Origin: an uncultured Bacteroidales bacterium
GTDB lineage: Bacteria; Bacteroidota; Bacteroidia; Bacteroidales; VadinHA17
Direction: 5' to 3'
DNA: 64,000 nt
NCBI GenBank assembly: GCA_963741935.1
Contig: CAVUJY010000011.1
Coordinates: 9,537 to 73,536, forward strand
Under the pieces are notes generated by a model. That model saw nothing but the letters and a program-made list of their open reading frames with translations, ran no database searches and was not told the origin of the DNA. Shown piece by piece: positions 2,941 through 49,565 of the stretch (its first letter is position 1; each line of letters begins with the position of its first letter). The position numbers and the translations under genes were made by a program.

Positions 2941-2979
2941 CTACAAGAGCAAGGTTTTATCTGGAAATAGGCACAGGAT

Positions 2980-4451: not shown

Positions 4452-4473
4452 TATTATAAATCAGCTATTTATT

Positions 4474-7035: not shown

Positions 7036-7052
7036 CCCGAAAAAGAATTGTT

Positions 7053-8674: not shown

Positions 8675-8856
8675 TAAAAATAATCCTACGATTAGGTCAA
8701 AATTCAGAATCGCAAATGTAAAATTTATAAATTAATGCAACCCTGAAAAGAGGTAAATTTTTAAATTTTGATTAACAGAATATTATAAAAGCTCTTTTAA
8801 GGAGATTAATTGTTTTTTTTTAACAAAATTTGTAAACTCTTAAATAAATAGGTTTA

Positions 8857-10408
8857 ATGTCAACAGATTCATTAGAATAAAGCTGAGAGATTTCTTGCTA
8901 TTGCCGATCAGTATAAACTGGGTAAACTTGTAACTGAATCTTCTCACCCAGCTACCGTAAACTTGTCTGAACTTGCCAGTGGAAAACCTTCCTGAAGCAA
9001 TAAAAGTTTTAAAGGAACTTGACAATGATACAGTTAAAGTTCTGATAGATAAGACTAAGCAGATATGCGATCTGAAGAATAAAATCAACGAAACGTTGAA
9101 AGCCGGGAATAATATTTTTTTCTGTGGGTGCGGTGCCACAGGAAGATTATCACTTACAATTGAGACCCTTTGGAGACAGGTACATAAAGGTGACGGTCTA
9201 AAAGACAGGGTATTCAGTTTTATGTCCGGCGGGGATGTTGCATTGATAAGGTCAATTGAAAATTTTGAAGATTATCCTCAATATGGAGCAAGACAGCTTA
9301 TTGAGGCCGGATTTAAACCCGGGGACTTGTTAATTTCTACAACTGAAGGAGGAGAAACTCCATTTGTAATAGGGGCAACTGAAAAGGCCGCGCTTATATC
9401 AGATAGGAAACCATTCTTTCTCTATTGCAATCCGGATGATATTCTTTGTGAGGTAGCAGAACGATCAAAGCTGGTAATTCAGAACCAGCATATTGAAAAG
9501 ATTAATCTTACGGTCGGGCCAATGGCGGTTACCGGAAGCACCCGCATGCAATCGTCAACTATACTTCTTGCGGCAGCAGGAATTGCAATGCTTTATTCTT
9601 CTGAAAGTGATTCAACAGTATCAGATATAATCAAGATCATTCAGTGCTTACTGGGATTCACTTGATATAAGTTTCATTGGAAGGTTTATAATTCAGGAAT
9701 CAGCATTATACAAAAACGGTGATTACCTTTTATATGAAACTGATAATAAACTGGGAATTACTGTGATAACTGACACTACAGAAAGATCTCCAACTTTTAG
9801 TCTGTACCCTTTTGAAAACGCAGGACGAGATTGAACCTGGTCTTTCCCTATGCTACCTTTACCTGCCTGAAGAAACTGACAGTGAAAAGGCATGGAAATC
9901 TTTATTATGGAGATCTCCCAGAACTTTGGAATGGTCAGATATTAATGGAATAGCATCCGAAAAACGGCTTCTTGGTTTCGATTTTAGTCAGAAGGTTTTA
10001 TCGAGACGTGAAAATCAGATAGTGCATGGCAATCAGTACAGGTTTGTGATTAAATCAGAAGAAACAGGACTTGACTTTAAATTGGGAAATAATGAACATT
10101 TTTTAGAAACACCTTTCGAGTCTCCAATCTTTATACATCTGGTTCTTAAAATGATATTAAATACACATTCAACTTTGATAATGGGGAGACTGGGAAGGTA
10201 TGAAGGAAATGTTATGACTTATGTAAGGGCTAGTAATAACAAGCTTATAGACAGGTCAATACGATATATTGACCTGATTCTGCAAAGAAAAAATATAAAA
10301 CTGACTTATGACAAAATTTGTTATAAACTATATGAGATGCTTGAGAAAACACATGGTGATAAATCGATTGTACTTACAACAGTAAGAGCAATAGAAAAGC
10401 AGAGTTAA
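8857..10408 (+). pseudogene. SIS-domain protein of the MurQ/GckR family, several frameshifts
   Basis: LVTESSHPATVNLSEL (TE..P motif) is in a frame upstream of ORF 8973. Also NIFFCGCGATGRLS and GSTRMQSSTILL (SIS motifs). ORF 9812-10408 carries KMILNTHSTLIMGRLGRYEGNVMTYVRASNNKLIDRSIRYI (MurQ/GckR C-terminal signature). The pieces lie in at least three frames. Confidence 0.55.
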
Positions 10409-10490
10409 ATAGTTAAGGTATATTTAAGGTAAAATGAGAACAGAATCTATAATAAATTAATAAATCTATGAAAATGAAAAGCATAATAAT

Positions 10491-10979
10491 TTGAGAGTAT
10501 ATGCTCTGGCGGCTCTTATCTTTGTATTTGCAGGTGTCAAAGCACAGGAAGCAAAAAAATTGTATGATCCTTCTCTTGACGGTATGAAGCAGATAAAAGA
10601 GGCTGCTGCAACAGCTGCAAAAGAGGGTAAGCATGTTTTGATTCAGTATGGCGGTAACTGGTGCAGTTGGTGTATAAAGTTTGATGCTTTCTGTAAAGCA
10701 GATACAGCAATTTCCAGAATTATATCCCAAAATTATATTCCGGTAAAACTTAACTATGATCCTTCCAATAAAAATGATGCTGCGAATGAATACCTCGGAA
10801 ATCCGACTCGCTTTGGTTTTCCGGTGTTCATTATACTTGACGGAAAAGGGACTGTTCTGCATATTCAGGATAGTGCTCTTTTAGAGGAAGGAAAGGGATA
10901 CAGTAAAGAAAAGGTTTCCAGGTTTTTTATGAACTGGACAGTATCAGCTCTGATTCCAAAGACTAAAAGGAAATCGTAA
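10491..10979 (+). CDS. secreted thioredoxin-fold protein (CxxC)
   Basis: Signal-like ALAALIFVFAGVKAQ and redox motif GGNWCSWCIKF. The track start is TTG. An upstream ATG (MKMKSIII) lies in another frame, so the 5' end may also be frameshifted. Confidence 0.7.
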   Translation: MRVYALAALIFVFAGVKAQEAKKLYDPSLDGMKQIKEAAATAAKEGKHVLIQYGGNWCSWCIKFDAFCKADTAISRIISQNYIPVKLNYDPSNKNDAANEYLGNPTRFGFPVFIILDGKGTVLHIQDSALLEEGKGYSKEKVSRFFMNWTVSALIPKTKRKS

Positions 10980-11069: not shown

Positions 11070-11438
11070 TTATTCCTGGATCATTTCATCCTGACCCTGA
11101 GCCTTTCCGTTTCGTAGCAGGAGAAGGTCATTCAAAACAATCTCGGTAATGTTCTTACTTACCCCTTTCTTATCTTCGTAAGTGCGATAGACAATTCTTC
11201 CTTCAACCGCAACTTCTTTCCCTTTCTTAAGGAATCTTCCGGCAATATCAGCCAGTCCGTTCCAGGCTACAATATTATGCCAGGTGGTTTCACTGACTCT
11301 CTGACCTTCGGCATTTTTATAGCCATCATTGGTGGCCAAAGTGAAATGAGTTACTTTCTTTCCTGTTTCAGTTGTTTTGATTTCAGGATCCATTCCAAGA
11401 TTTCCGATGAGTGTTACTCTGTTTTTTAATGAGTTCAT
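11070..11438 (-). CDS. ssb: single-stranded DNA-binding protein (short form)
   Basis: NRVTLIGNLGMDPEIKTTETGKKVTHFTLATN...TTWHNIVAWNGLADIAGRFLKKGKEVAVEGRI is the OB-fold SSB signature. The protein is 122 aa. Confidence 0.9.
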   Translation of the reverse strand: MNSLKNRVTLIGNLGMDPEIKTTETGKKVTHFTLATNDGYKNAEGQRVSETTWHNIVAWNGLADIAGRFLKKGKEVAVEGRIVYRTYEDKKGVSKNITEIVLNDLLLLRNGKAQGQDEMIQE

Positions 11439-11610: not shown

Positions 11611-12003
11611 TTGTATCTTTATAAAAACATAAGTGCTTTGGAAAAGAAATGTCTCGATTGTGGCGATACCTTGCGTGGTCGTACCGATAAAAAATTCTGT
11701 TCCGACCAATGCAGGAATAATTACAACAATAAACTAAACCGCGATTCAAACAACTATGTAAGGAATGTTCACGGTTTGTTGAGAAAAAACAGAAGGATAT
11801 TATCTGATCTCTATTCTGACGGAAAGGTTAAAATCCATAAAGATGCTCTGTTCGCACTTGGGTATAATTTTAGCTTTTTTACCCATATTATTGAAACATC
11901 AGAGGGCAGAAAGTTTCATTTTTGCTTTGAATATGGATATTGTTTCACAGAAGATGACTATCTGGAATTAAAACAGAATGAGAAGTATCTCGATTATCAG
12001 TAG
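11611..12003 (+). CDS. hypothetical zinc-ribbon protein
   Basis: CLDCGDTLRGRTDKKFCSDQCRNNY is a CxxC...CxxxC motif. There is no ATG upstream of the motif, so the start codon is uncertain (TTG in the track). Confidence 0.4.
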   Translation: MYLYKNISALEKKCLDCGDTLRGRTDKKFCSDQCRNNYNNKLNRDSNNYVRNVHGLLRKNRRILSDLYSDGKVKIHKDALFALGYNFSFFTHIIETSEGRKFHFCFEYGYCFTEDDYLELKQNEKYLDYQ

Positions 12004-19444: not shown

Positions 19445-20102
19445 GCTGGTTACAGGTTACTAATCAGTGTCTAAAGTTTGGAGTGCCTAAAATGCCTAAA
19501 GTTAAATAGATTGAATCAGTTTGTTTTATAACCCGCGATGATATTTAAAGCTTGTAATACATTTTGATTGTTTTATATGGATGTATAAATAATAGATATC
19601 AGGATGACATGTGGCGTAATCGTCTATTTATCAGCCATACAAAAAATTACTGACAACAGGCTGACTGAAAGAGCGTTACATATATGAAAATTACCTATGG
19701 TGTCGAACCCTAATGCTTATAGTACACGATTTTACAACTTTATTCTCTATCACGGAAGAGGTCATCTGTTAAGGACAAGAATAGCAATCAATAAATGATT
19801 CGTTATAATGATTGGGAGATACCTTCAACAAAAATCTGCAAAAATAGTATAGTTAGAAAAGATGAGATGTAAGATTAAGGGTGCGACCAGGAGTTATTCA
19901 TATTATGCCGATTCGTGGCTTAAAAAAATAAAATGCCAGCTGGAACCGAATTTACAAGTATCTAATAATACTTAATTGGTCAAATTGTTAATCTGGTTAA
20001 CCGATATCATAAAATCTAATTTACTATTTTTGACAGTGCATTATTCTCTGGTCACTATTGTGGCATTTTAGTGATCATTCTGTTTGATATATTTTTTTGA
20101 CG

Positions 20103-20747
20103 ATGGAAAAACTGGATCTGATAAAAGAAGCATTTCCTTTCCTGGAGAAGGAACTGATTGCTGAAATAGATAGTGTTTCAACATTTCAGGAGCTTAAGAC
20201 AAGCCAGAGCATTCTTGGTGAAGGTGATTATATAAAATCCTTTCCAATGGTGCTTAAAGGCTGCCTGCGTGTTGTACGACTTTCAGAAGATGGAAATGAA
20301 CTGCTTTTATATTATCTCAATAAAGGCGAGATATGCAGTATGTCGCTGACTTGTTGTATGTCGCTGCAGAAGAGTAATATTATAATGATAGCTGAGGAAA
20401 ATTCATCAATTATAACTATACCTGTAAATAAACCGGAGAAATGGATGACTGAATTTAAATCATGGAAAGAGTTCATGATGAATTCATATCGTCAGCGATT
20501 TGAAGAATTGCTTGAAACAATTGATTCAATAGCGTTTACAAAGCTTGATGACCGGATAATAAGGTTTTTCGAAGAGCGTTACAAATCCACCGGACAAAGT
20601 ACTTTTATCGGAACACATGCAGATATTGCCGAACAGCTTAATACATCACGGGAAGTGGTAAGCCGTCTTTTGCGCCATCTTGAGCTCCAGGATCTGGTTC
20701 GGACTGACAGAAACAGGGTAGATTATTCCATGTTAATAAAGAAATAG
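20103..20747 (+). CDS. Crp/Fnr family transcriptional regulator
   Basis: cNMP-binding-like beta-roll, then a C-terminal HTH (IAEQLNTSREVVSRLLRHLELQDLV). ATG 20103 is preferred to the TTG at 20097. Confidence 0.85.
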   Translation: MEKLDLIKEAFPFLEKELIAEIDSVSTFQELKTSQSILGEGDYIKSFPMVLKGCLRVVRLSEDGNELLLYYLNKGEICSMSLTCCMSLQKSNIIMIAEENSSIITIPVNKPEKWMTEFKSWKEFMMNSYRQRFEELLETIDSIAFTKLDDRIIRFFEERYKSTGQSTFIGTHADIAEQLNTSREVVSRLLRHLELQDLVRTDRNRVDYSMLIKK

Positions 20748-23187: not shown

Positions 23188-25209
23188 ATGGTATCAGGGG
23201 GTAGCGAATTAATTGGTTTGCTTTTTAGTGCATATTTATTATTCTTATTATCGGGTACTTTATTATTACCTTTCATTCCTGTTCGTCATAAAGCAACGAT
23301 TAGCATCATTCTTGTTTTTCTGATTGCAGTATTGACCAGTGCTTTAGCCTTTAAAGCTTTAGCCTGGGGAGCTATTGAAATTCAGATAAACGGCGGACTG
23401 TTTTTTGGTATTATACCATTAAGAATTGATTCCCTTACTGCTTTTTTTATCCTTATTATCAATTTTACAGCAATTACAGGCGTACTTTACGGAACAGGTT
23501 ATCTGAAATCTGTCGCTGTCAGACCTTCAGTTATATCACTGCACTGGATATTATATATCTTGTTTCATTCTTCAATGCTTGCTGTTACTATGGTTCAGCA
23601 CAGCATCGTATTTCTTATTGCATGGGAGATAATGTCACTGTCATCCCTTTTTCTTGTGGTATTTGAGCATGAAAATCCAAAAGTGCTGAAGGCAGGAATT
23701 AACTATTTGGTGCAGATGCATATAAGTGTGGTTTTTCTGACTGTGGGATTTATTTGGGTTTATTTTAAGACCGGTACATTCGACTTCAGAGGAATATCCT
23801 CATTTTTTAGTTCAAATGACAATATCTGGTTGTTTCTTGTATTCTTTCTTGGATTTGGTCTGAAAGCCGGATTTGTTGGACTGCACACATGGTTGCCAAA
23901 AGCTCATCCTGCTGCTCCGTCACACATTTCAGGCGTGATGTCAGGCGTAATAGTTAAGATGGGTATCTATGGCATTTTTCGAATAATATCTTATCTTAAA
24001 TCAGATTTTCTGATTATCGGGGAAATTGTGCTGTCCGTTTCCTTAATGACTGGTTTGTTCGGGATAATGAATGCTGCAGTGCATCGCGATTTTAAGAAGC
24101 TTCTGGCATACTGTACGATCGAGAATATTGGCATTATCGGAATAGGAATTGGTATCGGATTAATCGGTATTTCAAAAGGGCAGAGTTTGCTTTGTTTTCT
24201 TGGTTTCGGCGGGGCACTGGTTCATGTACTTAACCATTCATTATTTAAATCGTTGCTTTTTTATTCTGCAGGATCGGTATACAAACAAACCCATACCCGG
24301 GATATGGATAAACTGGGAGGGTTGATAAAGGTGATGCCATCCACTGCACTTTTCTTCCTTATTGGTTCAATTGCAATTGGAGGGATTCCTCCTTTTAATG
24401 GCTTTATATCGGAATTTCTTATCTATTCAGGAATAATTCATGGTATTAATACAGCTGGTATTTCACAGCTTACATTAATGATAATAACCTTCGCAGGAAT
24501 GAGTATAATCGGAGGTGTGTCAATTATTACTTTTACAAAAACCTTCGGTACTATCTTTCTTGGTAATGCCCGACAGAGAAGTAATCACAAACCGGTTGAA
24601 GTCTCATTTATAATGTTATTGCCACAATATCTGATAGTATGCCTGATGATTCTCATTTCTGTTTTCCCGGGTTATGTTATTCAAATTATGACAACAGTTC
24701 TGAATACATTCAGATTCCCGGGAATTAATATGTTTACTGCCGAATCGGAAAGATACATATTCATTATGCAGAATATAAGCATTACATCATTGCTATTCAT
24801 AGCTTTATCAGGAATCTTATTTTTTGTGCGATATACCTTTATCAGGGGAAAAGAGCAAAAAATCTCCTCAACATGGGGATGTGGCTATGTAAATCCAAAC
24901 ACTCATATGCAGTATACCGGAAAATCATATTCAAAGTCTTTCGGTAAGCTATTGAATTTTATGCTTATAGAGAAAAAAAGATATGAAGAAATCGACAGAA
25001 ATGATACATTCCCTGAAACGAGAAAATACAGTTCCTTTTATCTCGATGTAATAGAAAACAAGATAATTGATCCGATTATTCAATTGATTACATACATTAC
25101 CAACAAATTCCAGTTCATACAAAATGGTAAAGTTCAGGCTTATGTTATTTACGGAATTGTCTTTATATTAACAATATTTATATTAACAGTTTTAACTCTG
25201 ATTAATTGA
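23188..25209 (+). CDS. HyfB-like antiporter-type membrane subunit (NuoL/M/N superfamily), copy 1
   Basis: 673 aa, polytopic. WEIMSLSSLFLVVFEH and LHTWLPKAHPAAPSHISGVMSGVIVKMGIYG are typical of hydrogenase-4 component B. Confidence 0.85.
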   Translation: MVSGGSELIGLLFSAYLLFLLSGTLLLPFIPVRHKATISIILVFLIAVLTSALAFKALAWGAIEIQINGGLFFGIIPLRIDSLTAFFILIINFTAITGVLYGTGYLKSVAVRPSVISLHWILYILFHSSMLAVTMVQHSIVFLIAWEIMSLSSLFLVVFEHENPKVLKAGINYLVQMHISVVFLTVGFIWVYFKTGTFDFRGISSFFSSNDNIWLFLVFFLGFGLKAGFVGLHTWLPKAHPAAPSHISGVMSGVIVKMGIYGIFRIISYLKSDFLIIGEIVLSVSLMTGLFGIMNAAVHRDFKKLLAYCTIENIGIIGIGIGIGLIGISKGQSLLCFLGFGGALVHVLNHSLFKSLLFYSAGSVYKQTHTRDMDKLGGLIKVMPSTALFFLIGSIAIGGIPPFNGFISEFLIYSGIIHGINTAGISQLTLMIITFAGMSIIGGVSIITFTKTFGTIFLGNARQRSNHKPVEVSFIMLLPQYLIVCLMILISVFPGYVIQIMTTVLNTFRFPGINMFTAESERYIFIMQNISITSLLFIALSGILFFVRYTFIRGKEQKISSTWGCGYVNPNTHMQYTGKSYSKSFGKLLNFMLIEKKRYEEIDRNDTFPETRKYSSFYLDVIENKIIDPIIQLITYITNKFQFIQNGKVQAYVIYGIVFILTIFILTVLTLIN

Positions 25210-27229
25210 TTAATGCCTTGATATTCATAGTGCTGATTGCTGTTTTGGCAATACTGCTGGTAAAAACAACAGTAAAGGGAATTATCGCGGTTTCAGCCGT
25301 GGTAATAATCGGTTTACTGACAAGCTTTATTGCATTTAGAGCACTCATGGGAACAAACTATGATGTTGTATTAACCGGTACCATCATGTTTGGGAAAGTC
25401 CGCATCCTTATTGATGCACTTTCAGCATGGTTTATTCTGACCATAAATTTTACACTTATTACCGGTGCTATTTATGGTTTTAATTATATGAAGATGTACA
25501 GTGACCGTAAGAGCGAGATTACTCTTCATTGTATTGCCTACATTCTTATCCAGGTTGCCTTACTTGGGATCTGTTCAGTTCAGAATGGTTTCATTTTCCT
25601 TTTATTCTGGGAACTTATGGCTCTGTCTGTTTTTATTCTGGTGATTTTCGAACATGAAAAGCCAGATACAATTAAAGCCGGAATAAACTACCTGATTCAG
25701 TCACATATCAGTATTGTTTTTTTAATGCTTGGATTTATCTATGTGGCATTCAAAAATGGCGGTTACGGCTTTGATTCTATTTCAGAATTTTCATCTCATC
25801 AATCCACACTTGCCGGAACTGCACTCTTTCTCTGTTTTTTTGTTGGTTTTGCAATCAAATCCGGTTTCGTGCCCTTTCATACCTGGTTGCCATATGCACA
25901 TCCTGCTGCACCTGCTCATATCTCAGGTATAATGTCAGGTGTTCTGATAAAAATAGGGATCTATGGCATTTTAAGGATGTTGTTGCTGATAAAAACAGAC
26001 TATACAACAATTGGGTATATTATCCTTATAGTTTCAGTTATAACCGGATTGTATGGAGTTATGCTGGCTATAATACAGCATGACCTTAAGAAACTCCTGG
26101 CATACCATAGCATTGAAAATATCGGAATTATAGGAATCGGTATCGGTATTGGCTGCATTGGACTTGGAGATACCAACAAATGGATGACTATTCTGGGGTT
26201 TTCCGGTGCTCTTGCTTCATACTTTAAATCACTCATTATTTAAATCATTGCTGTTCTATAGTGCAGGTAATGTTTATCAGGCTGCTCACACTCTTAATAT
26301 TGAAAGGTTGGGTGGATTAATAAAGAGAATGCCAAAGACTGCAATTTTGTTTCTGGTAGCTGCGATAGCTATCTGCGGACTTCCACCGTTGAATGGTTTT
26401 ATTTCAGAATTCATGATATATGCAGGAATTTACAACTGGCTTTTCAGCGCCAGTTTGATTTCACTGATTGCTATAATATTTGCTCTTGTAGGACTTGTCC
26501 TGATAGGAGGTTTGGCGATTCTTTGTTTTACAAAAGCTTTCAGCGTTGTATTTTTAGGAAAATCAAGGGATATTCCTGAAGGAAATATAAAAGAAACAGG
26601 GTTCTGGCAATTGCTTCCTATGTATATGACGGTAACATTAATGATAATTATCGGATTGTTTCCTTCCGTTTTTATAAGTGCTTTGCAAACTCCGGTTAAT
26701 CTGTTTACACATCATATCGTATTTAATCTTAATCTTATTAAAGTAAGTGCCATTGATTCTCTTCAGATTATCAGCTGGCTGTTCATGGTATTTATATTGG
26801 TAGTAGCAGGATTGATGATATTAAAAAAACTGGTTCAAAGGAACAGGCTCATTGTAAAAGGACCAACATGGGGATGCGGATATAATGCAGCTGGTTCCAA
26901 AGTCCAGTATACAGCCGGCTCATTTGTCAAAAGCTACTCGAAGCTTGCCAAGCCATTTCTGAAAATTGAGAAATCAGGTGATGATGTTGATAAGGTATTT
27001 CCATCACTAAAACATTATTATACACGAGTCTTATGATAAGCTTGAACATATTCTTATTGATAAACCACTGAAGCTGATGTACAGGATTATTGATCTTTTT
27101 AAATTCATACAGAATGGCCATTTGCAGAGATATATTCTTTATGGAATAATATTTATTACCGCTGTGCTTTGTGTCCCTCTGATTATTGATAAGATATTGA
27201 CACTTATTCATTTCTTAAATAATTTGTAA
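25206..27229 (+). pseudogene. HyfB-like antiporter-type membrane subunit, copy 2, two frameshifts
   Basis: Paralog of the upstream gene (WELMALSVFILVIFEH; FHTWLPYAHPAAPAHISGIMSGVLIKIGIYG). Shift 1 is near 26211-26216: GAL, then LHTLNHSLFKSLLFYSAG. Shift 2 is near 27030: the C-terminus KLEHILIDKPLKLMYRIIDLFKFIQNGHLQRYILYGIIF aligns with the copy-1 C-terminus. It ends at TAA 27227-27229. The TTG start overlaps the copy-1 stop (TTGA). Confidence 0.8.
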
Positions 27230-27232
27230 AAA

Positions 27233-28138
27233 ATGTTAAGTCTGATTTTAATATTACTAACCAGCTTGTTCTTTACAGGTATTATTCTGAGAACCAAAAG
27301 CATAGCTTCGGGACGAAAAGGTCCGGGTATAATGCAGCCGCTGAAGGATGTAGTTAAGCTTTTCAGGAAAGGCTCAGTTTATAGTGATACCACAAGTATC
27401 ATTTTCCAGATTGCCCCAACCATTTACTTTACATCTGTGTTCATGGCATGTCTGGTTGTTCCGTTTGGCTCTTACAAAGGTATCGTAAGCTTTGATGGCG
27501 ACTTTATTTTCTTTGCATATATACTGGCATTGGGCAAGTTCTTCAGTATTATTTCAGCCATGGATACAGGCAGTAGTTTTGAAGGCATGGGAGCAAGCCG
27601 CGAGGCATTATATTCAATGTTTGCTGAACCTGCTTTCTTTATACTCATCGGTTCATTTGCACTTCTTACTGGCAATACATCATTCTATGATATCTTTTCT
27701 ACCTTGCATCTTGGCTCTTCAATAACCTACACTTTGGGAGGTCTGGCAGCATTTGTGCTTATAATGATATCAATGATTGAGAACAGCAGGATGCCTGTGG
27801 ATGATCCAAAGACACATCTGGAGCTAACTATGATACATGAAGTTATGATTCTTGATAATAGCGGCTTTGATTTTGGATTAATCCTTTCAGCCGGATATCT
27901 GAAGTTTGCAATGTACGGAGCATTAATTGCAGATTTTTTTATAGGTGGATTATCACTGATCTGGGCCATTCCTGTCTTTTTGATAATTCAGCTGGCTTAT
28001 GCAGTAATGGTAGGTCTTATTGAATCTTTTATGGCACGATTCAGAATGAGCCATAACCCACAGTTTATTCTTGCTCTATCATCCGTCAGTTTTCTGATAT
28101 TTCTTGGAGTATTACTTGTTTTGGAAAAATTTGTATAA
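27233..28138 (+). CDS. HyfC/HycD-like (NuoH family) membrane subunit
   Basis: 301 aa, polytopic. N-terminal GRKGPGIMQPLKDVVKLFRKG is typical of formate hydrogenlyase subunit 4 and NuoH. Confidence 0.85.
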   Translation: MLSLILILLTSLFFTGIILRTKSIASGRKGPGIMQPLKDVVKLFRKGSVYSDTTSIIFQIAPTIYFTSVFMACLVVPFGSYKGIVSFDGDFIFFAYILALGKFFSIISAMDTGSSFEGMGASREALYSMFAEPAFFILIGSFALLTGNTSFYDIFSTLHLGSSITYTLGGLAAFVLIMISMIENSRMPVDDPKTHLELTMIHEVMILDNSGFDFGLILSAGYLKFAMYGALIADFFIGGLSLIWAIPVFLIIQLAYAVMVGLIESFMARFRMSHNPQFILALSSVSFLIFLGVLLVLEKFV

Positions 28139-28149
28139 AACATCTGAAG

Positions 28150-28782
28150 ATGACAAATGTACTGTTGATTATATTTATTATAAGTCTTTTATATGTTGCG
28201 ATTGCGAACAGGATCATAACATATGTGAGGGTACTTGCATTACAGGGCTTTATCCTTTTTGCAGTGGCCTTTCTTCAATTGCAGGATATAAAGACGTGGA
28301 ATCTGATTCTCATTCTTCTTGAAACAATTGTTTTTAAAGCTCTGGCAGTTCCATTCTTTTTAAGCTATCTTATTAAGAGAAATAAAATTACCCGTGAATC
28401 TGAGCCATATCTTCCGCATTTTATATCACTGATTATAGTTACTCTGATTGTGGTAATTACAATACTGTTAGCTAATTCAGTCCATGACGCAAATCTTGAT
28501 AAGATTTTCTTTATAGTATCGCTATCGACTCTCTTTACGGGTTTATACTTCATAGCTTCAAGGAAAAAGATTATAACACATGTTATGGGATATCTCATGA
28601 TTGAGAATGGGGTATTTGTTCTTTCTCTTGCAGTTGGTAATGAGATGCCAAACCTGGTTAATCTTGGTATTATGCTTGATGTATTTGCAAGTGTTCTTAT
28701 TCTGGGCATCTTCCTTAATAAGATCGGCGATGTATTTAAAGATGCGGATGTTGACCAGCTAAGTAATTTGAAAGACTATTAA
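28150..28782 (+). CDS. HyfE-like small membrane subunit
   Basis: 210 aa with about 6 TM helices. Size and position (between the NuoH-like and NuoN-like genes) match hydrogenase-4 component E. MIENGVFVLSLAVG resembles NuoK/HyfE. Confidence 0.7.
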   Translation: MTNVLLIIFIISLLYVAIANRIITYVRVLALQGFILFAVAFLQLQDIKTWNLILILLETIVFKALAVPFFLSYLIKRNKITRESEPYLPHFISLIIVTLIVVITILLANSVHDANLDKIFFIVSLSTLFTGLYFIASRKKIITHVMGYLMIENGVFVLSLAVGNEMPNLVNLGIMLDVFASVLILGIFLNKIGDVFKDADVDQLSNLKDY

Positions 28783-28790
28783 TCGAGGAA

Positions 28791-30222
28791 ATGATGACAG
28801 GGATTTATCTTATTTGCTCTTTTGTTCTTGCAGGATTTATTTTCCTGAACAGGAAAACCTTAATAAATAACATATTAATTGTTGCTTTTGGAATATTGCA
28901 GACTGCATTCACAGTATATGCAGTAATGAACTATAGGTCAGGTTCTCTTGAATATTTCACATTTGATGCTCTGGGTTTACTTCTTCTCATGACTTTGAGT
29001 ATTGTTACTATTCCTGCTTTGCTTCATAGTTATCTTTATATTAAGAGACATAATGAGACACCGCAATCGCGTTCAATATATTTTGCAGCACTTGTTGTCC
29101 TTATTACTTCTATTACAGCTGCTTATCTGGCAAATCAGATTGCTGTTATCTGGATATTTGCTGAAATGACCACCTTGTCTGCATCTATGCTTATATACCA
29201 TCACCGCAACAAGCTGGCTCTTGAAGGCACCTGGAAGTATGTTTTCATTTGCGCAATAAGCTTAACTTTTGTCTTTATTGGCATATTATTTCTGAGCCTT
29301 TCTCTTCGCAATTCAGGATCTGATGATTTGTCATTCAGTAATCTTCTGTTATATAAGGATAAGCTCAACCCTTTTTGGTTAAGGCTGGCTTTCCTCTTTA
29401 TTTTCACAGGATTTACAGCCAAGATGGGACTGGTTCCAATGTACACAGCCGGTATTGATGCAAAAGATAAAGCACCTGCTCCTGTGGGTGCCTTACTGGC
29501 AAGTGTTTTGATGAACATGGGCTTTGTTGCTATATTCAGATTTTACATTGTTATTGCACAGACATCTCTTTTTCACTGGGCCAACCTCATAATTTTTGTA
29601 TCGGCAATTCTTTCGGTTTTAGTGGCTACTGTCTATATGACCAAGGTTATGAATATTAAGAGAATGTTAGCCTATTCAGGAATAGAACATATGGGCATTG
29701 TAATGCTTGGTGTCGCTGCCGGCGGTATTGGTTATTATGCGGCTGTACTGCATATAATACTTCACACTTTTGTAAAATCAGGATTGTTTTTTCAGTATAA
29801 CCAGCTATACAGAGTATTTCAGAGCAAAAGTATTCATCAGGCAGGCAATTATTTTAAATATAATCCAGCCGGTGCAATTGTTTTACTATTTGGCTTTATT
29901 AGTGCCACTGCTATGCCTCCATCTGGCTTGTTTGTTAGCGAATTTTTGATCTTCAGGTCGCTTTTTGAGAGCAGTCATCTGATTATACTGGTACTGGTAT
30001 TGATACTGCTTACCATTGTTATATGGGCATTTGGTAAAAATATATTTAAAATATTGTTTGTTCCGGTTCCCGGGTTTGATGAATCAAAAGTGCCTAGTTA
30101 TAAGCCCATGGGAATCATTAACTCAATATATACTTATGTTTTCGGCAATCTGGCTTGGTCTGAATCCTCCTGATGTTTTTGTTCAGATGATACAGGAGGC
30201 AGTTAAAATTTTACCTAACTAA
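28791..30222 (+). CDS. HyfF-like antiporter-type membrane subunit (NuoN-like), 3' frameshift
   Basis: Polytopic, with FTAKMGLVPMYTAGIDAKDKAPAPVGALLASVLMNMG and MLAYSGIEHMG. The as-read ORF stops at 30173. An overlapping frame (30016-30222; WESLTQYILMFSAIWLGLNPP...) ends 1 nt before the next ATG, so that is probably the true C-terminus. The shift is near 30070-30110. Confidence 0.8.
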
Positions 30223-30223
30223 T

Positions 30224-31726
30224 ATGAATGTTTTAGCAATAACTAATCATCAGTCAGTTCCGGTAGAAGAAATTCCGGTTTTGGAGTATAAATCCTTTAT
30301 GGAGATGCAACACTTCATTACTCGAAGATCATCCTGAACGACACTGTGTCTGTTATTTTGGTTATCGTTCAGGTAATATTGTGCATCTTATTTGTTGTAT
30401 AGCCGATGATAATCAGCATAATATAATGGTTTCTTCATCCATAGTTGAAGAAAACTCCAGTTCTGGATTCCTTCACTTCCAAAAATCTTGCATTTGAGAA
30501 ATTTGAACGTGAGATTCATGAGAATTTCGGTATTTCTTATTCTGATCATCCATGGCTGAAGCCGGTTAGGTATTCTGAAAACAGATCCGATAAGGGTCAG
30601 AATATTGCTGATTACCCGTTTTATAATATTGAAAGCGAGGAGCTTCATGAAGTAGGAGTGGGGCCTGTGCATGCCGGTATCATTGAACCCGGGCATTTCA
30701 GGTTTATTTGTAATGGGGAGCAGATTTTGCATCTTGAAATTCAACTGGGATTTCAGCATCGGGGAGTAGAACAGTTGTTCCTGGATAAAACTAAACTGAT
30801 TCAGCGAACAATTCTTGCTGAATCGATTGCCGGAGATAGTGTTATCGAACATAATTCAGCTTTTTCATATCTGATGGAAAGTCTGGGTGGAGTAGAAATT
30901 GGTAAGAGATGTTCTTTATGCCAGAACAATAGCCCAGGAGATAGAACGTATTGCAATTCATACCGGTGACCTGAGTGCAATATGTACTGATATTGCTTAC
31001 CAGCTTGGAAGTTCAGTTCTGGGAAGATTAAGAACACCTGTAATTAATTTTTTTCAGGAATGGTGTGGAAACAGACTTGCCAAAGGACTGATAAGAACCG
31101 GGTATAATCCATATCCATTTACTAATGCGCTGGCTGAAAGGTTATTAATGATTCTGGATGCATTTGAACCGGATTTTATTGAGATAAACAGTGAACTTTC
31201 CACTTTGCCAAGTACCTTATCGCGGTTTGAGAGAACAGGTACCTTATCTTATGACCAGCTTCTATCGATTGGTACCGTAGGTATGTCTGCAAGAATGAAC
31301 GCTCTGGAAAGGGATATACGAAAATCTCATCCTTATGGATTATATTCTGAATTAGACCATATTCCCGTAATAAAACATCATGGCGATGTATATTCAAGAG
31401 TACAGATAAGAAAGGAAGAGGTACTGCAGTCAATATCATATCTCAGACAGTTGCTGAAGAGTTTGCCAGAGCCTGGTAATACCGGCTCTGTTGGTATCTC
31501 TATGACTCCCTCTGCCTTTTCAGTTTCTCTGACCGAAGGATGGAGAGGAGAGATTTGTCATGCCGCCATAACCAATGAAAAAGGAGAACTTATAGTGTAT
31601 AAAATAAAAGATCCGTCTTTTCATAACTGGCTGGCTCTTGCCCTGAGTGTAAGAAATAATGAGATATCAGATTTTCCGGTATGCAATAAAAGCTTTGATC
31701 TGTCATATTGTGGTCATGATCTGTAA
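30224..31726 (+). pseudogene. HycE/HyfG-like NuoC-NuoD fusion (hydrogenase large-subunit homolog) lacking NiFe cysteine ligands, three frameshifts
   Basis: NuoC-like EREIHENFGISYSDHPWLKP. NuoD/HycE-like GPVHAGIIEPGHFRF...LGFQHRGVEQL. It has AESIAGDSVIEH where HycE has DRVCGICGFAH, and ends SFDLSYCGHDL where HycE has SLDPCYSCTDR. Frame changes are near 30300-30335, 30440 and 30900. Confidence 0.8.
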
Positions 31727-31745
31727 ACCTGAAACGCTATAGAAT

Positions 31746-32495
31746 ATGCTTAATACTTTAAAAATACTTCAACATCAGGGAAAACAATATATTCCGGACC
31801 TTAGAAATGCCAAAGTTCCTGGTATATTCAGGGGTCGTCCTGAAATTAGTCTGGAAACAGTTGATACCAGGGCTTTAATGGATGTCTGTCCCACAGATGC
31901 AATATATACAGATCCTGTCAGGATAGATCTTGGAAAATGTACTTTCTGTGGAGAATGTGCAAGATTATTTCCTTCGAAGATCCGTTTTACAACAGACTTT
32001 AAGCTCTCCTCGAATGACAGGGCAAGGCTTATTATATCCGAAGGATCTGTTAGTCCGGTAGAAATTGACCCGGCCAAAGTAAGGAAGGAGATCAGGAAAA
32101 TATTTGGTGGTTCACTCAAGCTAAGGCAGGTGTCGGCTGGAGGAGACAACAGTTGTGAACTTGAATTAAATGCTGCGGGCAATGTGAACTTTGATATGGG
32201 ACGTTATGGAATTGAGTTTGTAGCTTCTCCACGACATGCAGATGGAATTGTAATCACAGGTCCTGTTTCAAGAAATATGGCAGAACCACTTCAGATAACC
32301 TATGATGCCATACCTTCACCTAAACTAATAATACTTGTTGGTACTGATGCAATCAGTGGTGGAATATTTCAGGGAAGCCCTGCAATCGACAGAAAATTTA
32401 TTGAAGAAAACCATATCGATCTCTATATTCCCGGGAATCCGGTTCATCCTCTGACCTTTATAAATGGAATAATGGATTTGCTGGGTATTAAGTAA
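31746..32495 (+). CDS. NuoB/HycG-like small subunit with an N-terminal half-ferredoxin, proximal-cluster ligands mostly lost
   Basis: FVASPRHADGIVITGPVS and GTDAISGGIF are NuoB-family motifs. It reads VSAGGDNSCELE instead of DCGGCNGCEIE, GTDA instead of GACG, and PGNPVHP instead of PGCPPTP. The N-terminus has CPTDAI and CTFCGECARLFP. Confidence 0.8.
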   Translation: MLNTLKILQHQGKQYIPDLRNAKVPGIFRGRPEISLETVDTRALMDVCPTDAIYTDPVRIDLGKCTFCGECARLFPSKIRFTTDFKLSSNDRARLIISEGSVSPVEIDPAKVRKEIRKIFGGSLKLRQVSAGGDNSCELELNAAGNVNFDMGRYGIEFVASPRHADGIVITGPVSRNMAEPLQITYDAIPSPKLIILVGTDAISGGIFQGSPAIDRKFIEENHIDLYIPGNPVHPLTFINGIMDLLGIK

Positions 32496-44171: not shown

Positions 44172-44975
44172 ATGAGCTCAACTGTTAGCAGGCGTAACTT
44201 TATTCTGAAACATCTTGAAATGCATGACCAGGTAAATGTAGCTGAGCTTAGTAAACAGTTAGGGGTGAGTGAAGTTACAATTCGTAAAGACCTTAAGCAC
44301 CTGGAACAGAAAAATATCCTTATAAGGTCACGCGGTGGTGCTATGAAGCAAAGTCTCATTAATATCGATCTGTCGATCTACGACAGACGGAAAAAGAATA
44401 TTAAACTAAAAGAGGCGATAGGCAAAACTGCAGCAGGATTAATTCTCGATGGAGAAACAATATTTCTTGATACCGGTACCACAATAATGGAGTTGGCCAA
44501 ACATCTGCCGAAGAGGATTGATGTTACTATTATAACCAATTCTGTGGATATTGCGTTCCGTTTGGCTGAATATCCGGCAATCAGGGTGATTATGCCAGGA
44601 GGAATATTAAGAAGAAATTCCCTCTCCCTGGTAGGGGAAATGGCTGTTGAATCATTACGGAACTATTACTGCGATAAATACTTTCTTAGCGCAGATGCTA
44701 TTGATATTGAGCGCGGTATAATGACTGCAAATATTGAGGAAGCATCACTGGCGAAACTGAATATAAAGAACTCGAAAAAAGTATTTGCGCTTATTGACTC
44801 CTCTAAATTCAATTGTATGGGGACTATGACAATAGCATCTCTATCGGAAATTGACACAATAATTACCGACAACGGTGTGTCATCAGCAATTCTTGATGTA
44901 ATCCGAAAGGAAGGGCGTAAATGTTCTTGTTGCAGATACAATATGATTTCCATTACAGGCATATATGAAACCTAA
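44172..44975 (+). CDS. DeoR/GlpR family transcriptional regulator (3' end probably frameshifted)
   Basis: HTH VNVAELSKQLGVSEVTIRKDLKHLEQKNIL plus a DeoR C-terminal sensor domain. After about 44905 a shifted frame reads KGVNVLVADTI*, stopping at 44944-44946. This looks like the native DeoR C-terminus. Confidence 0.85.
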   Translation: MSSTVSRRNFILKHLEMHDQVNVAELSKQLGVSEVTIRKDLKHLEQKNILIRSRGGAMKQSLINIDLSIYDRRKKNIKLKEAIGKTAAGLILDGETIFLDTGTTIMELAKHLPKRIDVTIITNSVDIAFRLAEYPAIRVIMPGGILRRNSLSLVGEMAVESLRNYYCDKYFLSADAIDIERGIMTANIEEASLAKLNIKNSKKVFALIDSSKFNCMGTMTIASLSEIDTIITDNGVSSAILDVIRKEGRKCSCCRYNMISITGIYET

Positions 44976-46215
44976 CTATTATCTTCTTGTACTGATATTT
45001 CTGATCTTTTTTGCAATATCATTTTTAACCAATATTCTTGGATCGATAAATCCGAATGTGAGTGACAGTTTTGTATTAACCGGAACGATGACAGGATTGC
45101 TTCCTTTTTCTTTTTTTATTGCATATGCATTAATGTCAATACCCTCAGGTATGCTTGTCCAGAAATATGATGAAAAAAGAAGTCTGATTGTAGCGTGGGT
45201 TCTTTCTTTTTCAGGGGCTCTGATATTTTCTCTTTTCCCCTCGTTTCCTGTTTTTCTCTTTTCACTATTCTTAATAGGTTCGGGAATGGCTCTTCTGCAG
45301 GTTGCATTATTCCCATTATTAAGAGTTACCGGAGGGGAACAGCATTTTGCATTTAATTCGGTAATTGTTCAGCTTGTTTTCGGGATAGCTTCATTCCTTA
45401 GTCCATTTGTATATTCTTACCTCGTGTCGAACCTTACGGATCAACAGGTTTCAAAAGGCATATTTATAGGTTTTATGTCTGTTCTGACTCCAAAACAGTT
45501 GCCATGGGTCTCAATTTACTGGATTTTTACTTTTATAAGCTTCGCAATGATAGCCATAATACTTTTTGTCAGGTTTCCAGGAGTAATTAGAAAAGTGGAT
45601 GAGATTGTTGGTGCCTGGGAAACTCATATTGAACTATTCAAAAAGAAGACTGTAATACTATTCTTTCTTGGCATATTTGCCTATGTGGGTATTGAGCAGG
45701 GTATTGCAAACTGGATTTCTGAGTTTCTTCGTACCTATCATGGTATTAAGCCTGAAACAGGAGGCGCTGCAACAGTAGGATTATTCTGGGGAATGATGAC
45801 AGTAGGCTGCATTTTGGGACTTGTATTGTTAAAAGTAATAGACAGTAAAATTGTTTTACGCATCTTTGTTATTGCCGCGCTTGTTGTCTTATCTTTTACT
45901 CTATTCGGGAGCGCAAAAATGGCTCTGTTTGGATTTCCTGCACTCGGATTTTGCCTTTCGGTAATGTATGCCATAATATTTTCTCTTGCTTTAAACAGTG
46001 TCTCAAAATACCACGGATCGTTTGCAGGAATACTATGTACTGCCATAGCAGGTGGAGCAATATTTTCTCTCCTTATCGGAAAGCTTAAAGATATGATCGG
46101 TTTACAATCTGGCATGCTGATATTGTTTATCCCGCTTTTTTATATTCTGAGTTTAAGTTATTGGGCAAAGCCAATAGTAACTAACGCAACAATCAAAAGA
46201 AAAAATACCAATTAA
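44965..46215 (+). CDS. MFS sugar transporter (FucP / glucose-galactose porter-like)
   Basis: 416 aa with 12 predicted TM helices. The N-terminal region FFAISFLTNILGSINPNVSDSF...LLPFSFFIAYALMSIPSG is typical of FHS-family sugar/H+ symporters. Confidence 0.8.
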   Translation: MKPNYYLLVLIFLIFFAISFLTNILGSINPNVSDSFVLTGTMTGLLPFSFFIAYALMSIPSGMLVQKYDEKRSLIVAWVLSFSGALIFSLFPSFPVFLFSLFLIGSGMALLQVALFPLLRVTGGEQHFAFNSVIVQLVFGIASFLSPFVYSYLVSNLTDQQVSKGIFIGFMSVLTPKQLPWVSIYWIFTFISFAMIAIILFVRFPGVIRKVDEIVGAWETHIELFKKKTVILFFLGIFAYVGIEQGIANWISEFLRTYHGIKPETGGAATVGLFWGMMTVGCILGLVLLKVIDSKIVLRIFVIAALVVLSFTLFGSAKMALFGFPALGFCLSVMYAIIFSLALNSVSKYHGSFAGILCTAIAGGAIFSLLIGKLKDMIGLQSGMLILFIPLFYILSLSYWAKPIVTNATIKRKNTN

Positions 46216-46231
46216 TTAAAATCTTATCATT

Positions 46232-46979
46232 ATGAAAACAAATGAATTTAACAGAAAGGGCATTGCCGCAGGAATTAAAACAGGCAAAACTTTATTAGCA
46301 TCAATTGTTACCATTTGCTTATTCCTCGTTATTTCAACTGTTGCCAAAGCACAGGTTGCTGATAATACAGGATGGATACAGCTTTTTAATGGGAAGGACC
46401 TGACAGGATGGAAACAGGTTGGTCCGGGAACACATTATGTGGAAGATGGTTTGTTAAAGTCTACCGGAGGGATGGGTTTACTTTACTGGACTGGTGGAGA
46501 ATTCGGGAACTGTACAATTCGTGTGGTTTTCAGGATGCGCGATAACAACAGTAATTCTGGTGTTTTTATCAGAATACCTATTGAACCCCGTGAAGAATGG
46601 ATGCCGGTTTTTTATGGATATGAAGTTCAGATAGATAATAAACCGGAACTCTCAGATGAAGATGATTATCACTATACAGGGATGTTGTATTCACTGACCA
46701 AACCATTAGCTAAAACAGGAAAACCTGGTCCGGAATGGAACACAATGGATATAACACTTGATGGTCTTGAGAACAATTGTTTATCTCAATGGAGTAAAAG
46801 TTACAGATTACAAAGAAGGTGATCCGGTGCCTGAACGTAAATTTGATTTTGAACCATTTCATGGACTTCGTCCGGTATTAGGATGGATAGGGGTACAAAA
46901 TCATGGTGATAAAGATGTTGTATTCTTTAAGGAAGTTTCATGTCAAACCGCTTCAAAAGTGCAAAGTAATGTTAACTGA
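46232..46979 (+). pseudogene. DUF1080 (3-keto-disaccharide hydrolase family) protein, one frameshift
   Basis: GWIQLFNGKDLTGWKQVG, SNSGVFIR and GYEVQIDN in ORF 46232-46822. VYLNGVKVTDY...GWIGVQNHGDKDVVFFKEV in ORF 46758-46979. Confidence 0.75.
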
Positions 46980-47007
46980 TTATTAATATCCATTTTAATA
47001 CAAACCT

Positions 47008-48537
47008 ATGAAAAGGACAAGTCATAAAACAACCAACAAAAAAGAGATCTCCCGCAGGAGTTTTGTGAAAACAGCTGCTGCAGGTGCTGCTGCAATGACT
47101 ATACTGCCAAATTTTACAATTAGCGGACTGGGACATGTTGCTCCAAGCGATAAGTTACTTATTGCTGCTGTAGGCTGTGGCGGAGAGGGGGCTGATGATA
47201 TACGCCATTATTCGATAGCGCCGAAAAAGAATGCTGAAATAGCTTTCCTTTGTGATGTAGACGACAGGATGGCGGCACCCAGAAGAAAAGAATTTCCAAA
47301 AGCAAAGTTCTATTACGACTGGCGTGAAATGTTCGATAAGGAGAGTAAAAACTTTGATGCTGTATCTGTTGCAATACCTGATCACAATCATGCTATTGTC
47401 GGGCTAAGTGCCATGCAGCTTAATAAACATCTTTATCTTCAAAAACCTCTTACTCACGATATTTATGAAGCCCGTATTCTGACACAGGCTGCTGAAAAAT
47501 ACAAGGTGGTTACCCAGATGGGGGACCAGGGTGCTTCATGCGACGGTATGCGCACCCTTCGCGAATGGATTGAAGCAGACGTTCTTGGGGAAATTCAGAA
47601 GGTGTATTGCTGGACCGACAGACCAGTCTGGCCACAGGGAATACCCTGGCCATCAGACCAGTCCTGCTGTTCCTTCTGAACTGAAATGGGATCTCTGGTT
47701 AGGAACAGCCATGGAAACAAATTATATTGATAATATGGTTCCTTTCAACTGGCGTGGCTGGTGGAGGTTCGGTACCGGTGCTCTTGGAGATATGGGATGT
47801 CATATTATGGGACCTCCATTTAAGCTGCTCAAACTGGGATATCCTACTGAAGTATCAGGTAGTGCAAGCACACGTATACAGTGGAATTTTTGAGGAAGGA
47901 ATATATCCTGACAGCGGACCAGTATCCAGTTCAATTCGTTTTAAATATAAGCTGGACAATGGGAAGGATTTAGATCTTTACTGGATGGATGGTGGAATTA
48001 CCCCTGAACGTCCATCTGAAATTGACTCTGATCAGAATATGAATGAAGTGATGGCTGATTACCCTGGGTCTTAACGATTATGAAGGAGGTACTTTGTTTA
48101 TTGGAACAAAGGGAAAAGCAGCCTGCGGATGGGGTGGCCGTAATCCGATTCTTTTACCACTTTCCCATAATAAGGATGTAAATATTCCTCAAAAGTATGC
48201 AAGAGTTCCGGGAAATATGGATGGTCACTGGTGGCAGTGGATTGATGCATGCATAGCCGGATATGGAAATGCTGAAGTTGATTCTCCGTTTGTGGGTTAT
48301 GCAGGACCACTTACCGAAACTGTATTAATGGGTAACCTTTTACTGAGAAGCTTTAATATCCGGGAAAAAATTAAGAGAACCGACCCTGTTTATGGTGAGA
48401 TGGAGGGTTATACTTTTCCAGGAAGATACATAAACTATAAATGGGATGGTCCAAACATGAGAATTACAAACTTTGAACAGGCTAACCAGTTTGTTAAACG
48501 TGAGTACAGAAAAGGGTGGGGGGAGATAAAACTGTGA
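47008..48537 (+). pseudogene. TAT-exported Gfo/Idh/MocA family oxidoreductase, about three frameshifts
   Basis: TAT motif SRRSFVKTAAAGAAAM, Rossmann LLIAAVGCGGEG, and LYLQKPLTHDIYEAR. WRGWWRFGTGALGDMGCHIMGPP is in a second frame, and further pieces are in ORFs 47727-48074 and 48094-48537. Confidence 0.8.
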
Positions 48538-48582
48538 CCATATGTTGCTTGAAATAATAGCTGATAGGATTGTAAATGAGAT

Positions 48583-48787: not shown

Positions 48788-48832
48788 TTAAAATATTTTA
48801 GTCCCGATTATATTAATTTATTTAATCGTAAT

Positions 48833-49556: not shown

Positions 49557-49565
49557 AAAATTGAT

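Follow-up and report, generated by a model that had tools for sequence, protein, structure and literature searches.

We analysed a stretch of 64,000 nucleotides from an uncultured Bacteroidales bacterium (assembly GCA_963741935.1, contig CAVUJY010000011.1, positions 9,537 to 73,536), called the window throughout, in which seven co-directional, nearly abutting genes on the forward strand (23188–32495) encode a membrane complex resembling group-4 hydrogenases and complex I. The operon almost certainly encodes an energy-converting-hydrogenase-related (Ehr) complex and not a hydrogenase. Judged from ligand motifs, the family to which it belongs divides into a three-cluster subtype replete with iron–sulfur (FeS) clusters and a one-cluster, FeS-depleted subtype, and the window carries the latter.

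Ehr gene clusters are group-4-hydrogenase-like clusters in which the large subunit lacks the NiFe cysteines (PMC6349859, PMC10284858, PMC5037454). The class name predates 2013 and the exclusion of Ehr from HydDB was deliberate (PMC6349859, PMC5037454, PMC10284858); the complexes are suspected of coupling a cytoplasmic redox reaction to charge translocation and are uncharacterised (PMC6349859, PMC5037454, PMC10284858, PMC7304191, PMC4758237). Because the class had already been named and the family proved to be widespread, the operon is less surprising than first thought: it is an ordinary member of a large Bacteroidota family present in hundreds of genomes, not an oddity of the window. What is added here is the split of Ehr into FeS-replete and FeS-depleted forms, together with a pair of carboxylates conserved where the cluster used to be bound. 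Our literature search found no paper on Bacteroidota Ehr or on loss of the FeS wire, an earlier mention in Marreiros et al. 2013 being possible.

Cofactor sites of the large and small subunits

The large subunit EhrL (30224–31726), NuoC-NuoD/HycE-like, matches PF00329 weakly as well as PF00346, scores 106 bits against MbhL, 98 against HycE, 71 against Nqo4 and 35 against MbsL, and is interrupted in the assembly by three +1 frameshifts that are discussed below. We read its ligand positions residue by residue from HMMER alignments to MbhL, HycE and Nqo4, and then in unbroken orthologues. EhrL has neither the NiFe ligands nor the quinone tyrosine of complex I. At the first ligand motif (L1), AESIAGDS (30817–30840) aligns with RxCGxC, with Ala in place of Cys1 and Ser in place of Cys2; at the second (L2), SFDLSYCGHDL followed by the stop codon (31691–31723) aligns with DPCxxCxxR, with Ser for Cys3 and Gly for Cys4. 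A displaced cysteine (C495) lies between the former Cys3 and Cys4, and 14 of 73 environmental Bacteroidota orthologues have Ser or Ala in its place. All four NiFe positions are occupied by residues other than Cys in 154 of the 155 unbroken large subunits from four clades, the single exception having one Cys at one position. The open reading frame (ORF) stops three residues past L2, which leaves no C-terminal tail for endopeptidase processing. Gly is found at the position of the complex-I quinone tyrosine (Tyr87 in the numbering of Thermus thermophilus Nqo4), and the β1–β2 loop is of the hydrogenase type, GPVHAGIIEPGHFRF (EPGHFRF).

The NuoC-like domain of EhrL also contains an H-C...C-C motif, ERHCVCYFG...LICCIADD (~30336–30410), that is invariant in environmental Bacteroidota and absent in Alistipes. 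This absence rules it out as a universal cofactor or ligand site.

The small subunit EhrS (31746–32495, unbroken; PF01058, E 2.4e-20, plus Fer4) is a fusion of a HyfH/NuoI-like half-ferredoxin domain (residues ~14–99), which matches NuoI, HycF and HyfH models, and a NuoB/HycG-like domain (~110–249). It scores 83 bits against MbhJ, 71 against HycG, ~60 against NuoB and 39 against MbsJ. In an AlphaFold2 monomer model (mean pLDDT 86, pTM 0.86), the C-terminal domain superposes on HycG and MbhJ, which are the best Foldseek matches (TMt 0.84; HycG at rank 1).

Alignment to MbhJ and HycG, checked in unbroken orthologues, places the former proximal (N2-type) cluster ligands at D134, C137, D201 and N231 (32145–32438, forward strand), with D134 encoded at 32145–32147 and D201 at 32346–32348. 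The first, third and fourth positions are Asp, Asp and Asn in all 80 environmental Bacteroidota orthologues, and the second is Cys in 70, Thr in seven, Asn in two and Ser in one. The four positions read D/E, V/T, E/D and A/N/T in 53 Alistipes/Rikenellaceae sequences, and D, I, D and D in Solirubrobacterales. With these residues, EhrS cannot bind a proximal cluster, and the feature that is conserved in its stead is a pair of carboxylates. Wherever the proximal-cluster cysteines have been lost (Bacteroidota, Alistipes and Solirubrobacterales), positions one and three are Asp or Glu.

The ferredoxin domain retains the sole complete FeS site of the subunit, made up of C48, the 'CP' cysteine of ferredoxin motif I, and C65-x2-C68-x2-C71 of motif II (31887–31958, forward strand). 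All 162 relatives compared, from four phyla, have these four cysteines. Bacteroidota EhrS has lost the first three cysteines of motif I and the fourth of motif II, the latter being F75 in the window. Under the ligation rule of 2x[4Fe-4S] ferredoxins, C48 and C65/C68/C71 amount to exactly one complete [4Fe-4S] cluster.

The preliminary description of the operon, made from the DNA letters alone, had noted that both redox subunits lack their canonical metal-ligand cysteines; the loss of the NiFe and of the proximal-cluster ligands holds in the window and recurs in ~150 unbroken orthologues. Its estimate of at most one FeS cluster likewise agrees with the invariant four-cysteine site. Calling the complex 'cofactor-less' was right about the ligand loss and slightly too strong as a label, given that one invariant four-cysteine [4Fe-4S] motif stays. 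It had also raised the possibility that indels mask CxxC motifs; this we can exclude, since the motifs lie in unbroken stretches and read the same way in orthologues.

Membrane arm, relatives and subtypes

The remaining five genes encode the membrane arm. We assigned gene families with Pfam and NCBIfam models and ranked matches to solved structures in the Protein Data Bank (PDB) by bit score. The operon begins with the HyfB-like, antiporter-like subunit EhrA-1 (B1; 23188–25209, 673 aa, unbroken; PF00361, E 1.3e-54), which aligns to positions 12–666 of the 669-residue HyfB model (E 2.5e-147, 492 bits against an equivalog cut-off of 667) and is closest to HycC (173 bits) and MbhH (172 bits), with NuoL at 96. 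TTGA at 25206–25209 combines the B1 stop codon with the TTG start of the second HyfB-like subunit, EhrA-2 (B2; 25206–27229), which lies in three frame pieces separated by two +1 frameshifts; in tblastn the pieces are collinear and cover residues 3–675 of the unbroken orthologue at locus L001, at 71–75% identity. It is followed by the HyfC-HycD-NuoH-like EhrB (27233–28138, 301 aa, unbroken; PF00146, E 9.3e-36), whose best structural match is HycD (89 bits; NuoH 43), and by the HyfE-like EhrC (28150–28782, 210 aa, unbroken; NCBIfam HyfE, E 2.4e-21), which reaches 77 bits against a HyfE cut-off of 136 and matches PF00420 (NuoK) weakly. The HyfF-like, antiporter-like EhrD (28791–30222, one +1 frameshift; PF00361, E 6.3e-44) completes the arm, scoring 195–212 bits against HyfF models, under their cut-offs (195 versus 610). 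Measured from frame-corrected gene ends, the gaps that follow the TTGA overlap are 3, 11, 8, 1 and 19 nt, so that gene content, order, overlap and spacing are all as initially described.

Hydrogenase complexes outscore complex I for every subunit compared with solved structures, and no subunit reaches any NCBIfam equivalog cut-off. As far as such similarity scores can tell, the operon descends from group-4 hydrogenases of the Hyf/Hyc/Mbh type.

Residues of the putative ion pathways, counted over 109–139 relatives, have been kept. The Glu of transmembrane helix (TM) 5, the Lys/His of TM7, the Lys of TM8, the His/His/Lys of TM11 and the Glu of TM12 are invariant or nearly so in the HyfB-like subunits; in B1, where the TM7 residue is Lys, this holds across 109 relatives. 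The TM12 Glu of EhrD is present in 121 of 121 relatives, both membrane Glu residues of EhrC are invariant (113 of 113), and the NuoH-like TM5–6 loop of EhrB, E..R.P.DD....E, is conserved in 139. Strong selection thus acts on the residues of the ion pathways and of the coupling loop. The peripheral subunits are conserved across families at least as strongly as the membrane ones, with identities to Chitinophagaceae of ~70% for the small subunit, ~64% for the large subunit and ~55% for the HyfB-like subunits.

Searched against species-representative genomes, the small subunit matches at least 449 loci, of which the top 80 come almost entirely from Bacteroidota (Bacteroidales, Prolixibacteraceae, Lentimicrobiaceae, Saprospiraceae, Lutibacter and others), and include Chitinophagaceae with the cultured Niastella vici. 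In ~70 of these 80 loci the operon is complete, each gene being one full-length ORF and the HyfB-like genes numbering one or two, so six-gene versions with one HyfB exist alongside the seven-gene form. A more distant clade in gut Alistipes/Rikenellaceae also has a six-gene operon. EhrS is 68–81% identical across families that include aerobes (Niastella, Lewinella, Lutibacter), and ~52–54% identical to representatives of the anaerobic Alistipes/Rikenellaceae clade. Because the operon is kept and conserved across families of aerobes and anaerobes alike, these data argue for strong purifying selection and for a role independent of H2 metabolism. One contig is labelled as a Chloroflexota metagenome-assembled genome (L010, JBLNAO010000017.1), yet its Ehr operon is 70–90% identical to Bacteroidales ones; this contig is probably mis-binned.

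An exhaustive profile search extended the set to 3981 small-subunit relatives. Many of the 85 full-length representatives have four proximal-cluster cysteines and a two-cluster ferredoxin domain. Loci of one such three-cluster type occur in Planctomycetota and Bdellovibrionales, with more members in Variovorax and Nannocystis. At the Planctomycetota and Bdellovibrionales loci, where the large subunit of this type was checked, it carries the same ESIAGD and SFDLSYCGNDL replacements and is NiFe-less; the ESIAGD and SYCG[HN]DL motifs are common to NiFe-less relatives in three other phyla. Sequence records name the three-cluster small subunits (L151–L173; P0339, P0348, P0369) just '4Fe-4S binding protein' or 'NuoB family'. 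One Pirellula contig (L154) holds two Ehr-like large/small pairs (557–3061 and 3396–10735) within a 20 kb locus, which suggests tandem paralogous complexes.

The predicted cluster complement therefore separates a three-cluster from a one-cluster subtype. In a rough neighbour-joining tree, the one-cluster clades of Bacteroidota and Solirubrobacterales stand apart, with the latter nested among four-cysteine forms. This topology suggests, as a lead only given how crude the tree is, that cluster loss with Cys-to-Asp/Glu replacement at the same two positions occurred at least twice.

Proposed function and competing explanations

We favour a reading of Bacteroidota Ehr as a non-redox cation or proton translocator, while giving it slightly less than an even chance. 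With the distal and proximal clusters gone and one cluster left, there would be no electron path to the old active-site pocket, and for that reason no hydrogenase or quinone-reductase chemistry; through-electron transfer would have been given up. The function retained would be cation or proton translocation, Mrp-like in effect, with the antiporter-like subunits and a NuoH/HyfE channel as the route taken by the ions, because all else is conserved and the hosts span obligate aerobes to strict gut anaerobes. The NuoCD/NuoB-like cap might then serve as a conformational coupling or gating element, with the carboxylates of D134 and D201 replacing the former cluster by a fixed charge or a cation site. 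The lone [4Fe-4S] cluster could be structural, or could tune activity by sensing redox state or oxygen. In complex I, the N7 cluster is held to be off-pathway and structural. A fuller version, which we put forward with somewhat more reserve, would make the complex a redox-dead descendant of hydrogenases and complex I whose coupling machinery (antiporter-like subunits, E-channel, NuoH loop and NuoD β1–β2 loop) is complete, but which lost its electron wire, apparently on two or more independent occasions, and gained a conserved carboxylate pair in place of the proximal cluster, acting either as a purely conformational translocator or as a redox-gated valve with the cluster as its sensor. The conformational ion translocator or sensor proposed at the outset thus stands as the best reading, by inference only.

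Several points weigh against it. We know of no Ehr complex that has been studied by experiment. The lone [4Fe-4S] site is absolutely conserved, and its cluster could still be passing electrons to an acceptor close by, or receiving them from a partner whose genes lie elsewhere. Conservation of the peripheral arm is stronger than a passive plug would require. The argument that the wire is broken by distance is drawn from homology to the structures of complex I and formate hydrogenlyase (FHL), and would hold to the extent that this analogy does. Finally, the old EhrL pocket keeps the polar residues E154, E199, D204, R440 and C162, and mostly C495, so that some chemistry there is possible.

The second of these points leads to the main alternative, which we consider possible though unlikely, namely that redox chemistry continues to drive ion pumping by the complex. 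Its single cluster would take electrons from reduced ferredoxin or flavodoxin, or from a separately encoded dehydrogenase, for example in a formate dehydrogenase (FDH)–Ehr arrangement, and pass them to menaquinone or a sulfur compound bound nearer than in complex I. The invariance of the four cluster cysteines and the strong constraint on the peripheral arm favour such a pump, as do the FeS-replete sister complexes, which imply an ancestral redox function. Redox coupling, including FDH–Ehr, has been proposed in the literature (PMC6349859), and Ehr is more abundant in formate-grown Geobacter (PMC7894505). Against it, the proximal ligands are gone, the one retained cysteine varies (T/V/I/N in relatives), the distal cluster is also gone, and the complex-I quinone tyrosine position is Gly. 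Nor is a donor or acceptor module conserved nearby: when 1375 ORFs flanking the operon at 79 loci were clustered, no conserved partner gene or oxidoreductase emerged beside it, the only shared neighbours (GGT, alkylation repair and M49 peptidase) reflecting synteny within the 16 closest relatives. No partner oxidoreductase turned up among the window ORFs scanned either. The occurrence of the operon in obligate aerobes and strict anaerobes alike is a further difficulty for this alternative.

Three of the seven genes are interrupted in the assembly, by six frameshifts that were located against the unbroken orthologous operon at locus L001. B2 is shifted at ~26197–26234 and ~27024–27026 (pieces in frames 3, 1 and 2), EhrD at ~30095–30107 (frame 3, then 1) and EhrL at ~30305–30312, 30446–30460 and 30894–30905 (frames 2, 3, 1 and 2). 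Several shifts coincide with short homopolymers or repeats, such as CCC at 30104–30106 in EhrD and AAAA at 30451–30454 in EhrL. All six lie outside the ligand motifs, and EhrS has no frameshift. Comparison with syntenic loci revealed eight more frameshifts in five unrelated neighbouring genes: a GH109-like oxidoreductase (~22681), a DNA-alkylation repair gene (~34782), an M49 peptidase (~36730), a radical-SAM gene (~40390) and a GFO/IDH/MocA oxidoreductase (52032–53514) with four frameshifts in 1.5 kb (52126–53150). Across the window, such unrelated genes carry ~1 frameshift per 1–3 kb.

It is improbable that these shifts are real and that the operon is a decaying pseudogene cluster in the present organism. 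The number of broken genes speaks for decay, as does a frameshift density in the operon (6 in 9.3 kb) somewhat above that of the compared flanks. Unrelated flanking genes are, however, equally often broken, the four shifts at 52032–53514 included, and a single type, '+1' (one base extra or two missing), accounts for 13 of the 14 shifts, which is a technical signature. The frame pieces of the broken genes are free of in-frame stops and 71–83% identical to their orthologues, within the range found between unbroken orthologues. Because the flanking genes are equally hit, 13 of the 14 shifts run in one direction and orthologous operons are unbroken in more than 70 Bacteroidota genomes, we consider it very likely that the six operon frameshifts are assembly indels and not operon-specific decay; in the organism itself the genes most likely carry no breaks. 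The contig bears the signature of a systematic assembly or polishing error, and every gene call on it therefore needs frame correction. Elsewhere in the window, three overlapping same-strand ORFs at 5424–7694 (forward strand), the middle one with a thiamine-pyrophosphate enzyme domain, are probably one gene split by two further frameshifts.

The polar residues of the old pocket invite another alternative, in which ion flux is coupled to a non-redox reaction there, such as vectorial CO2 hydration on zinc bound by Cys, His and Asp. DabAB and the Cup modules of cyanobacterial NDH-1 carry out vectorial CO2 hydration, and in these systems antiporter-like subunits drive non-redox chemistry. C162, D204 and H445 are conserved in EhrL, C495 and H497 mostly so, and E154 sits in the conserved β1–β2 loop. 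The candidate ligands are nevertheless not invariant, as the Ser/Ala substitutions of C495 show; C444 varies in Alistipes and Planctomycetota, and C162 is Thr in Solirubrobacterales. Neither Pfam nor NCBIfam gives a carbonic-anhydrase signal. We regard this alternative as improbable, and zinc or another metal in the old pocket was rejected because the candidate Cys/His residues are not invariant.

A bona fide group-4 [NiFe]-hydrogenase (Hyf/FHL-2) with motifs hidden by sequencing errors, to which the Hyf-like gene order, the best family matches and the annotation of relatives as 'Ni,Fe-hydrogenase III large subunit' would point, is effectively refuted by L1 and L2 reading AGDS and SYCG in unbroken stretches as in 154 of 155 orthologues, by an ORF that ends without a C-terminal extension, by scores under every NCBIfam equivalog cut-off and by an unbroken small subunit without three of the four cluster cysteines.

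It is debated by what means a change of charge at the quinone or NiFe site moves ions ~200 Å away in machines of the complex-I type, and the role of Ehr has been an open question ever since its naming. Related complexes with a full three-cluster wire (Planctomycetota, Variovorax) and with a single isolated cluster (Bacteroidota, Solirubrobacterales) amount to a natural experiment, and comparing the two subtypes, both of which occur in cultured hosts (Niastella vici, Alistipes and Variovorax), could reveal which coupling steps require redox chemistry. The significance would be high if a non-redox mechanism were demonstrated. Ehr genes are also widely mis-annotated as 'Ni,Fe-hydrogenase III', 'hydrogenase 4' or 'NADH-quinone oxidoreductase', which inflates calls of H2 metabolism in Bacteroidota, including gut Alistipes.

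Genomic surroundings and known systems

Most window ORFs of 120 aa or longer were scanned with Pfam, and no hyp, fdh, nik, nuoEFG, HyfA/HycB or endopeptidase gene turned up among them; the scan left out about seven ORFs (10413–10979, 11070–11438, 11611–12003, 57860–59054, 59201–62554 and 62668–63420). Among the ORFs scanned, the absence of redox-input, maturation and nickel genes noted from the DNA alone is therefore confirmed. The window has no Rfam match at gathering score, with only noise upstream of the operon and hence no riboswitch or RNA leader there, and no tRNA was found in it. Counts of sigma-70 promoters and terminators equal the shuffled expectation and are therefore uninformative, the more so as the model does not cover Bacteroidota promoters.

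Regulation by a Crp/Fnr-family protein is hinted at in other genomes. In seven loci from Prolixibacteraceae and related groups and from Lewinella (L029, L034, L038, L041, L053, L065 and L072), a divergent gene for such a regulator lies 134–245 nt upstream of the Ehr operon, and all seven have a match of 9–10 out of 10 to TTGAT-N4-ATCAA 5' of the first gene, ~79–85 nt upstream in six. Matches of at least 9/10 occur in eight loci, compared with 1.8 expected. In the window, a Crp-like gene lies at 20097–20747, ~2.4 kb upstream of the operon, and no FNR/CRP box of at least 8/10 occurs within 260 nt upstream of the operon.

Further downstream, a sugar-oxidation locus (44172–54451) contains a DeoR regulator, a major facilitator superfamily transporter, three PF06439 3-keto-disaccharide hydrolase genes, GFO/IDH/MocA oxidoreductases with a twin-arginine translocation (TAT) signal, a glucosamine-6-phosphate isomerase-like gene and a ketohexokinase-like gene. 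On the reverse strand, 55252–57717 encodes a protein with a type IX secretion system (T9SS) C-terminal sorting domain and a frameshifted C25 (gingipain-family) peptidase, both consistent with a Bacteroidota origin.

Of the systems with which we compared the operon, Escherichia coli Hyc (FHL-1, PDB 7Z0S) and Hyf (FHL-2) give the best or near-best match for every subunit, and the Hyf order hyfB-C-E-F-G-(H)I is the order found in the window. The window differs from both in lacking the NiFe ligands, the proximal cluster and the C-terminal processing tail, as well as HyfA/HycB, a separate HyfH/HycF, HyfD, FdhF, hyp genes and an endopeptidase. The membrane-bound hydrogenase (MBH) of Pyrococcus furiosus (PDB 6CFW) supplies the top matches to MbhL (106 bits), MbhJ (83) and MbhH (172). 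Unlike MBH, the window has no Mrp-type MbhA–G module. The related MBS keeps a three-cluster wire. MBS/Mbx (PDB 6U8Y) is also a precedent for a hydrogenase-derived complex that has lost NiFe and still pumps ions, and its subunits match the window weakly (MbsL 35 bits, MbsJ 39).

Complex I shares homologous NuoB-, NuoC-, NuoD-, NuoH-, NuoK-like and NuoL/M/N-like subunits with the window, in which the antiporter Lys/Glu pattern and the NuoH TM5–6 loop are kept. In contrast to complex I, the window has no N2 cluster, has Gly at the Nqo4 Tyr87 position, lacks NuoEFG, NuoA and NuoJ, and retains only half a NuoI with one four-cysteine site; its scores to complex I are below those to hydrogenases. The Mrp Na+/H+ antiporter is a translocator based on MrpA/MrpD without redox drive, and MrpA matches B1 at 119–122 bits. 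The parts in common are nonetheless limited to MrpA/D-like (PF00361) and NuoK-like ones, with no MrpB/E/F/G matches and no MrpC, and the NuoH-, NuoCD- and NuoB-like subunits of the window are foreign to Mrp, of which the operon is not a member.

The closest correspondence is with Ehr itself. The Geobacter sulfurreducens Ehr cluster spans seven genes (GSU0739–GSU0745), among which NuoL-like EhrA-1, HyfE-like EhrC, EhrL and EhrS have been named (PMC7894505), and by this published description, as opposed to an alignment, its seven-gene span and named subunit types match the window operon. The window has what defines the class, a group-4-like large subunit without NiFe-binding cysteines, in an operon of NuoL/HyfB-, NuoH-, HyfE- and HyfF-like subunits with a large and a small subunit. 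Assignment to Ehr, first suggested from the DNA alone, is thus borne out by the ligand loss and by the Geobacter gene span and subunit types. The Bacteroidota form goes beyond the Ehr definition, in that the proximal cluster is missing too, along with one of the two clusters of the ferredoxin domain, whereas the relatives in Planctomycetota, Bdellovibrionales and Variovorax keep the proximal cluster and both ferredoxin-domain clusters.

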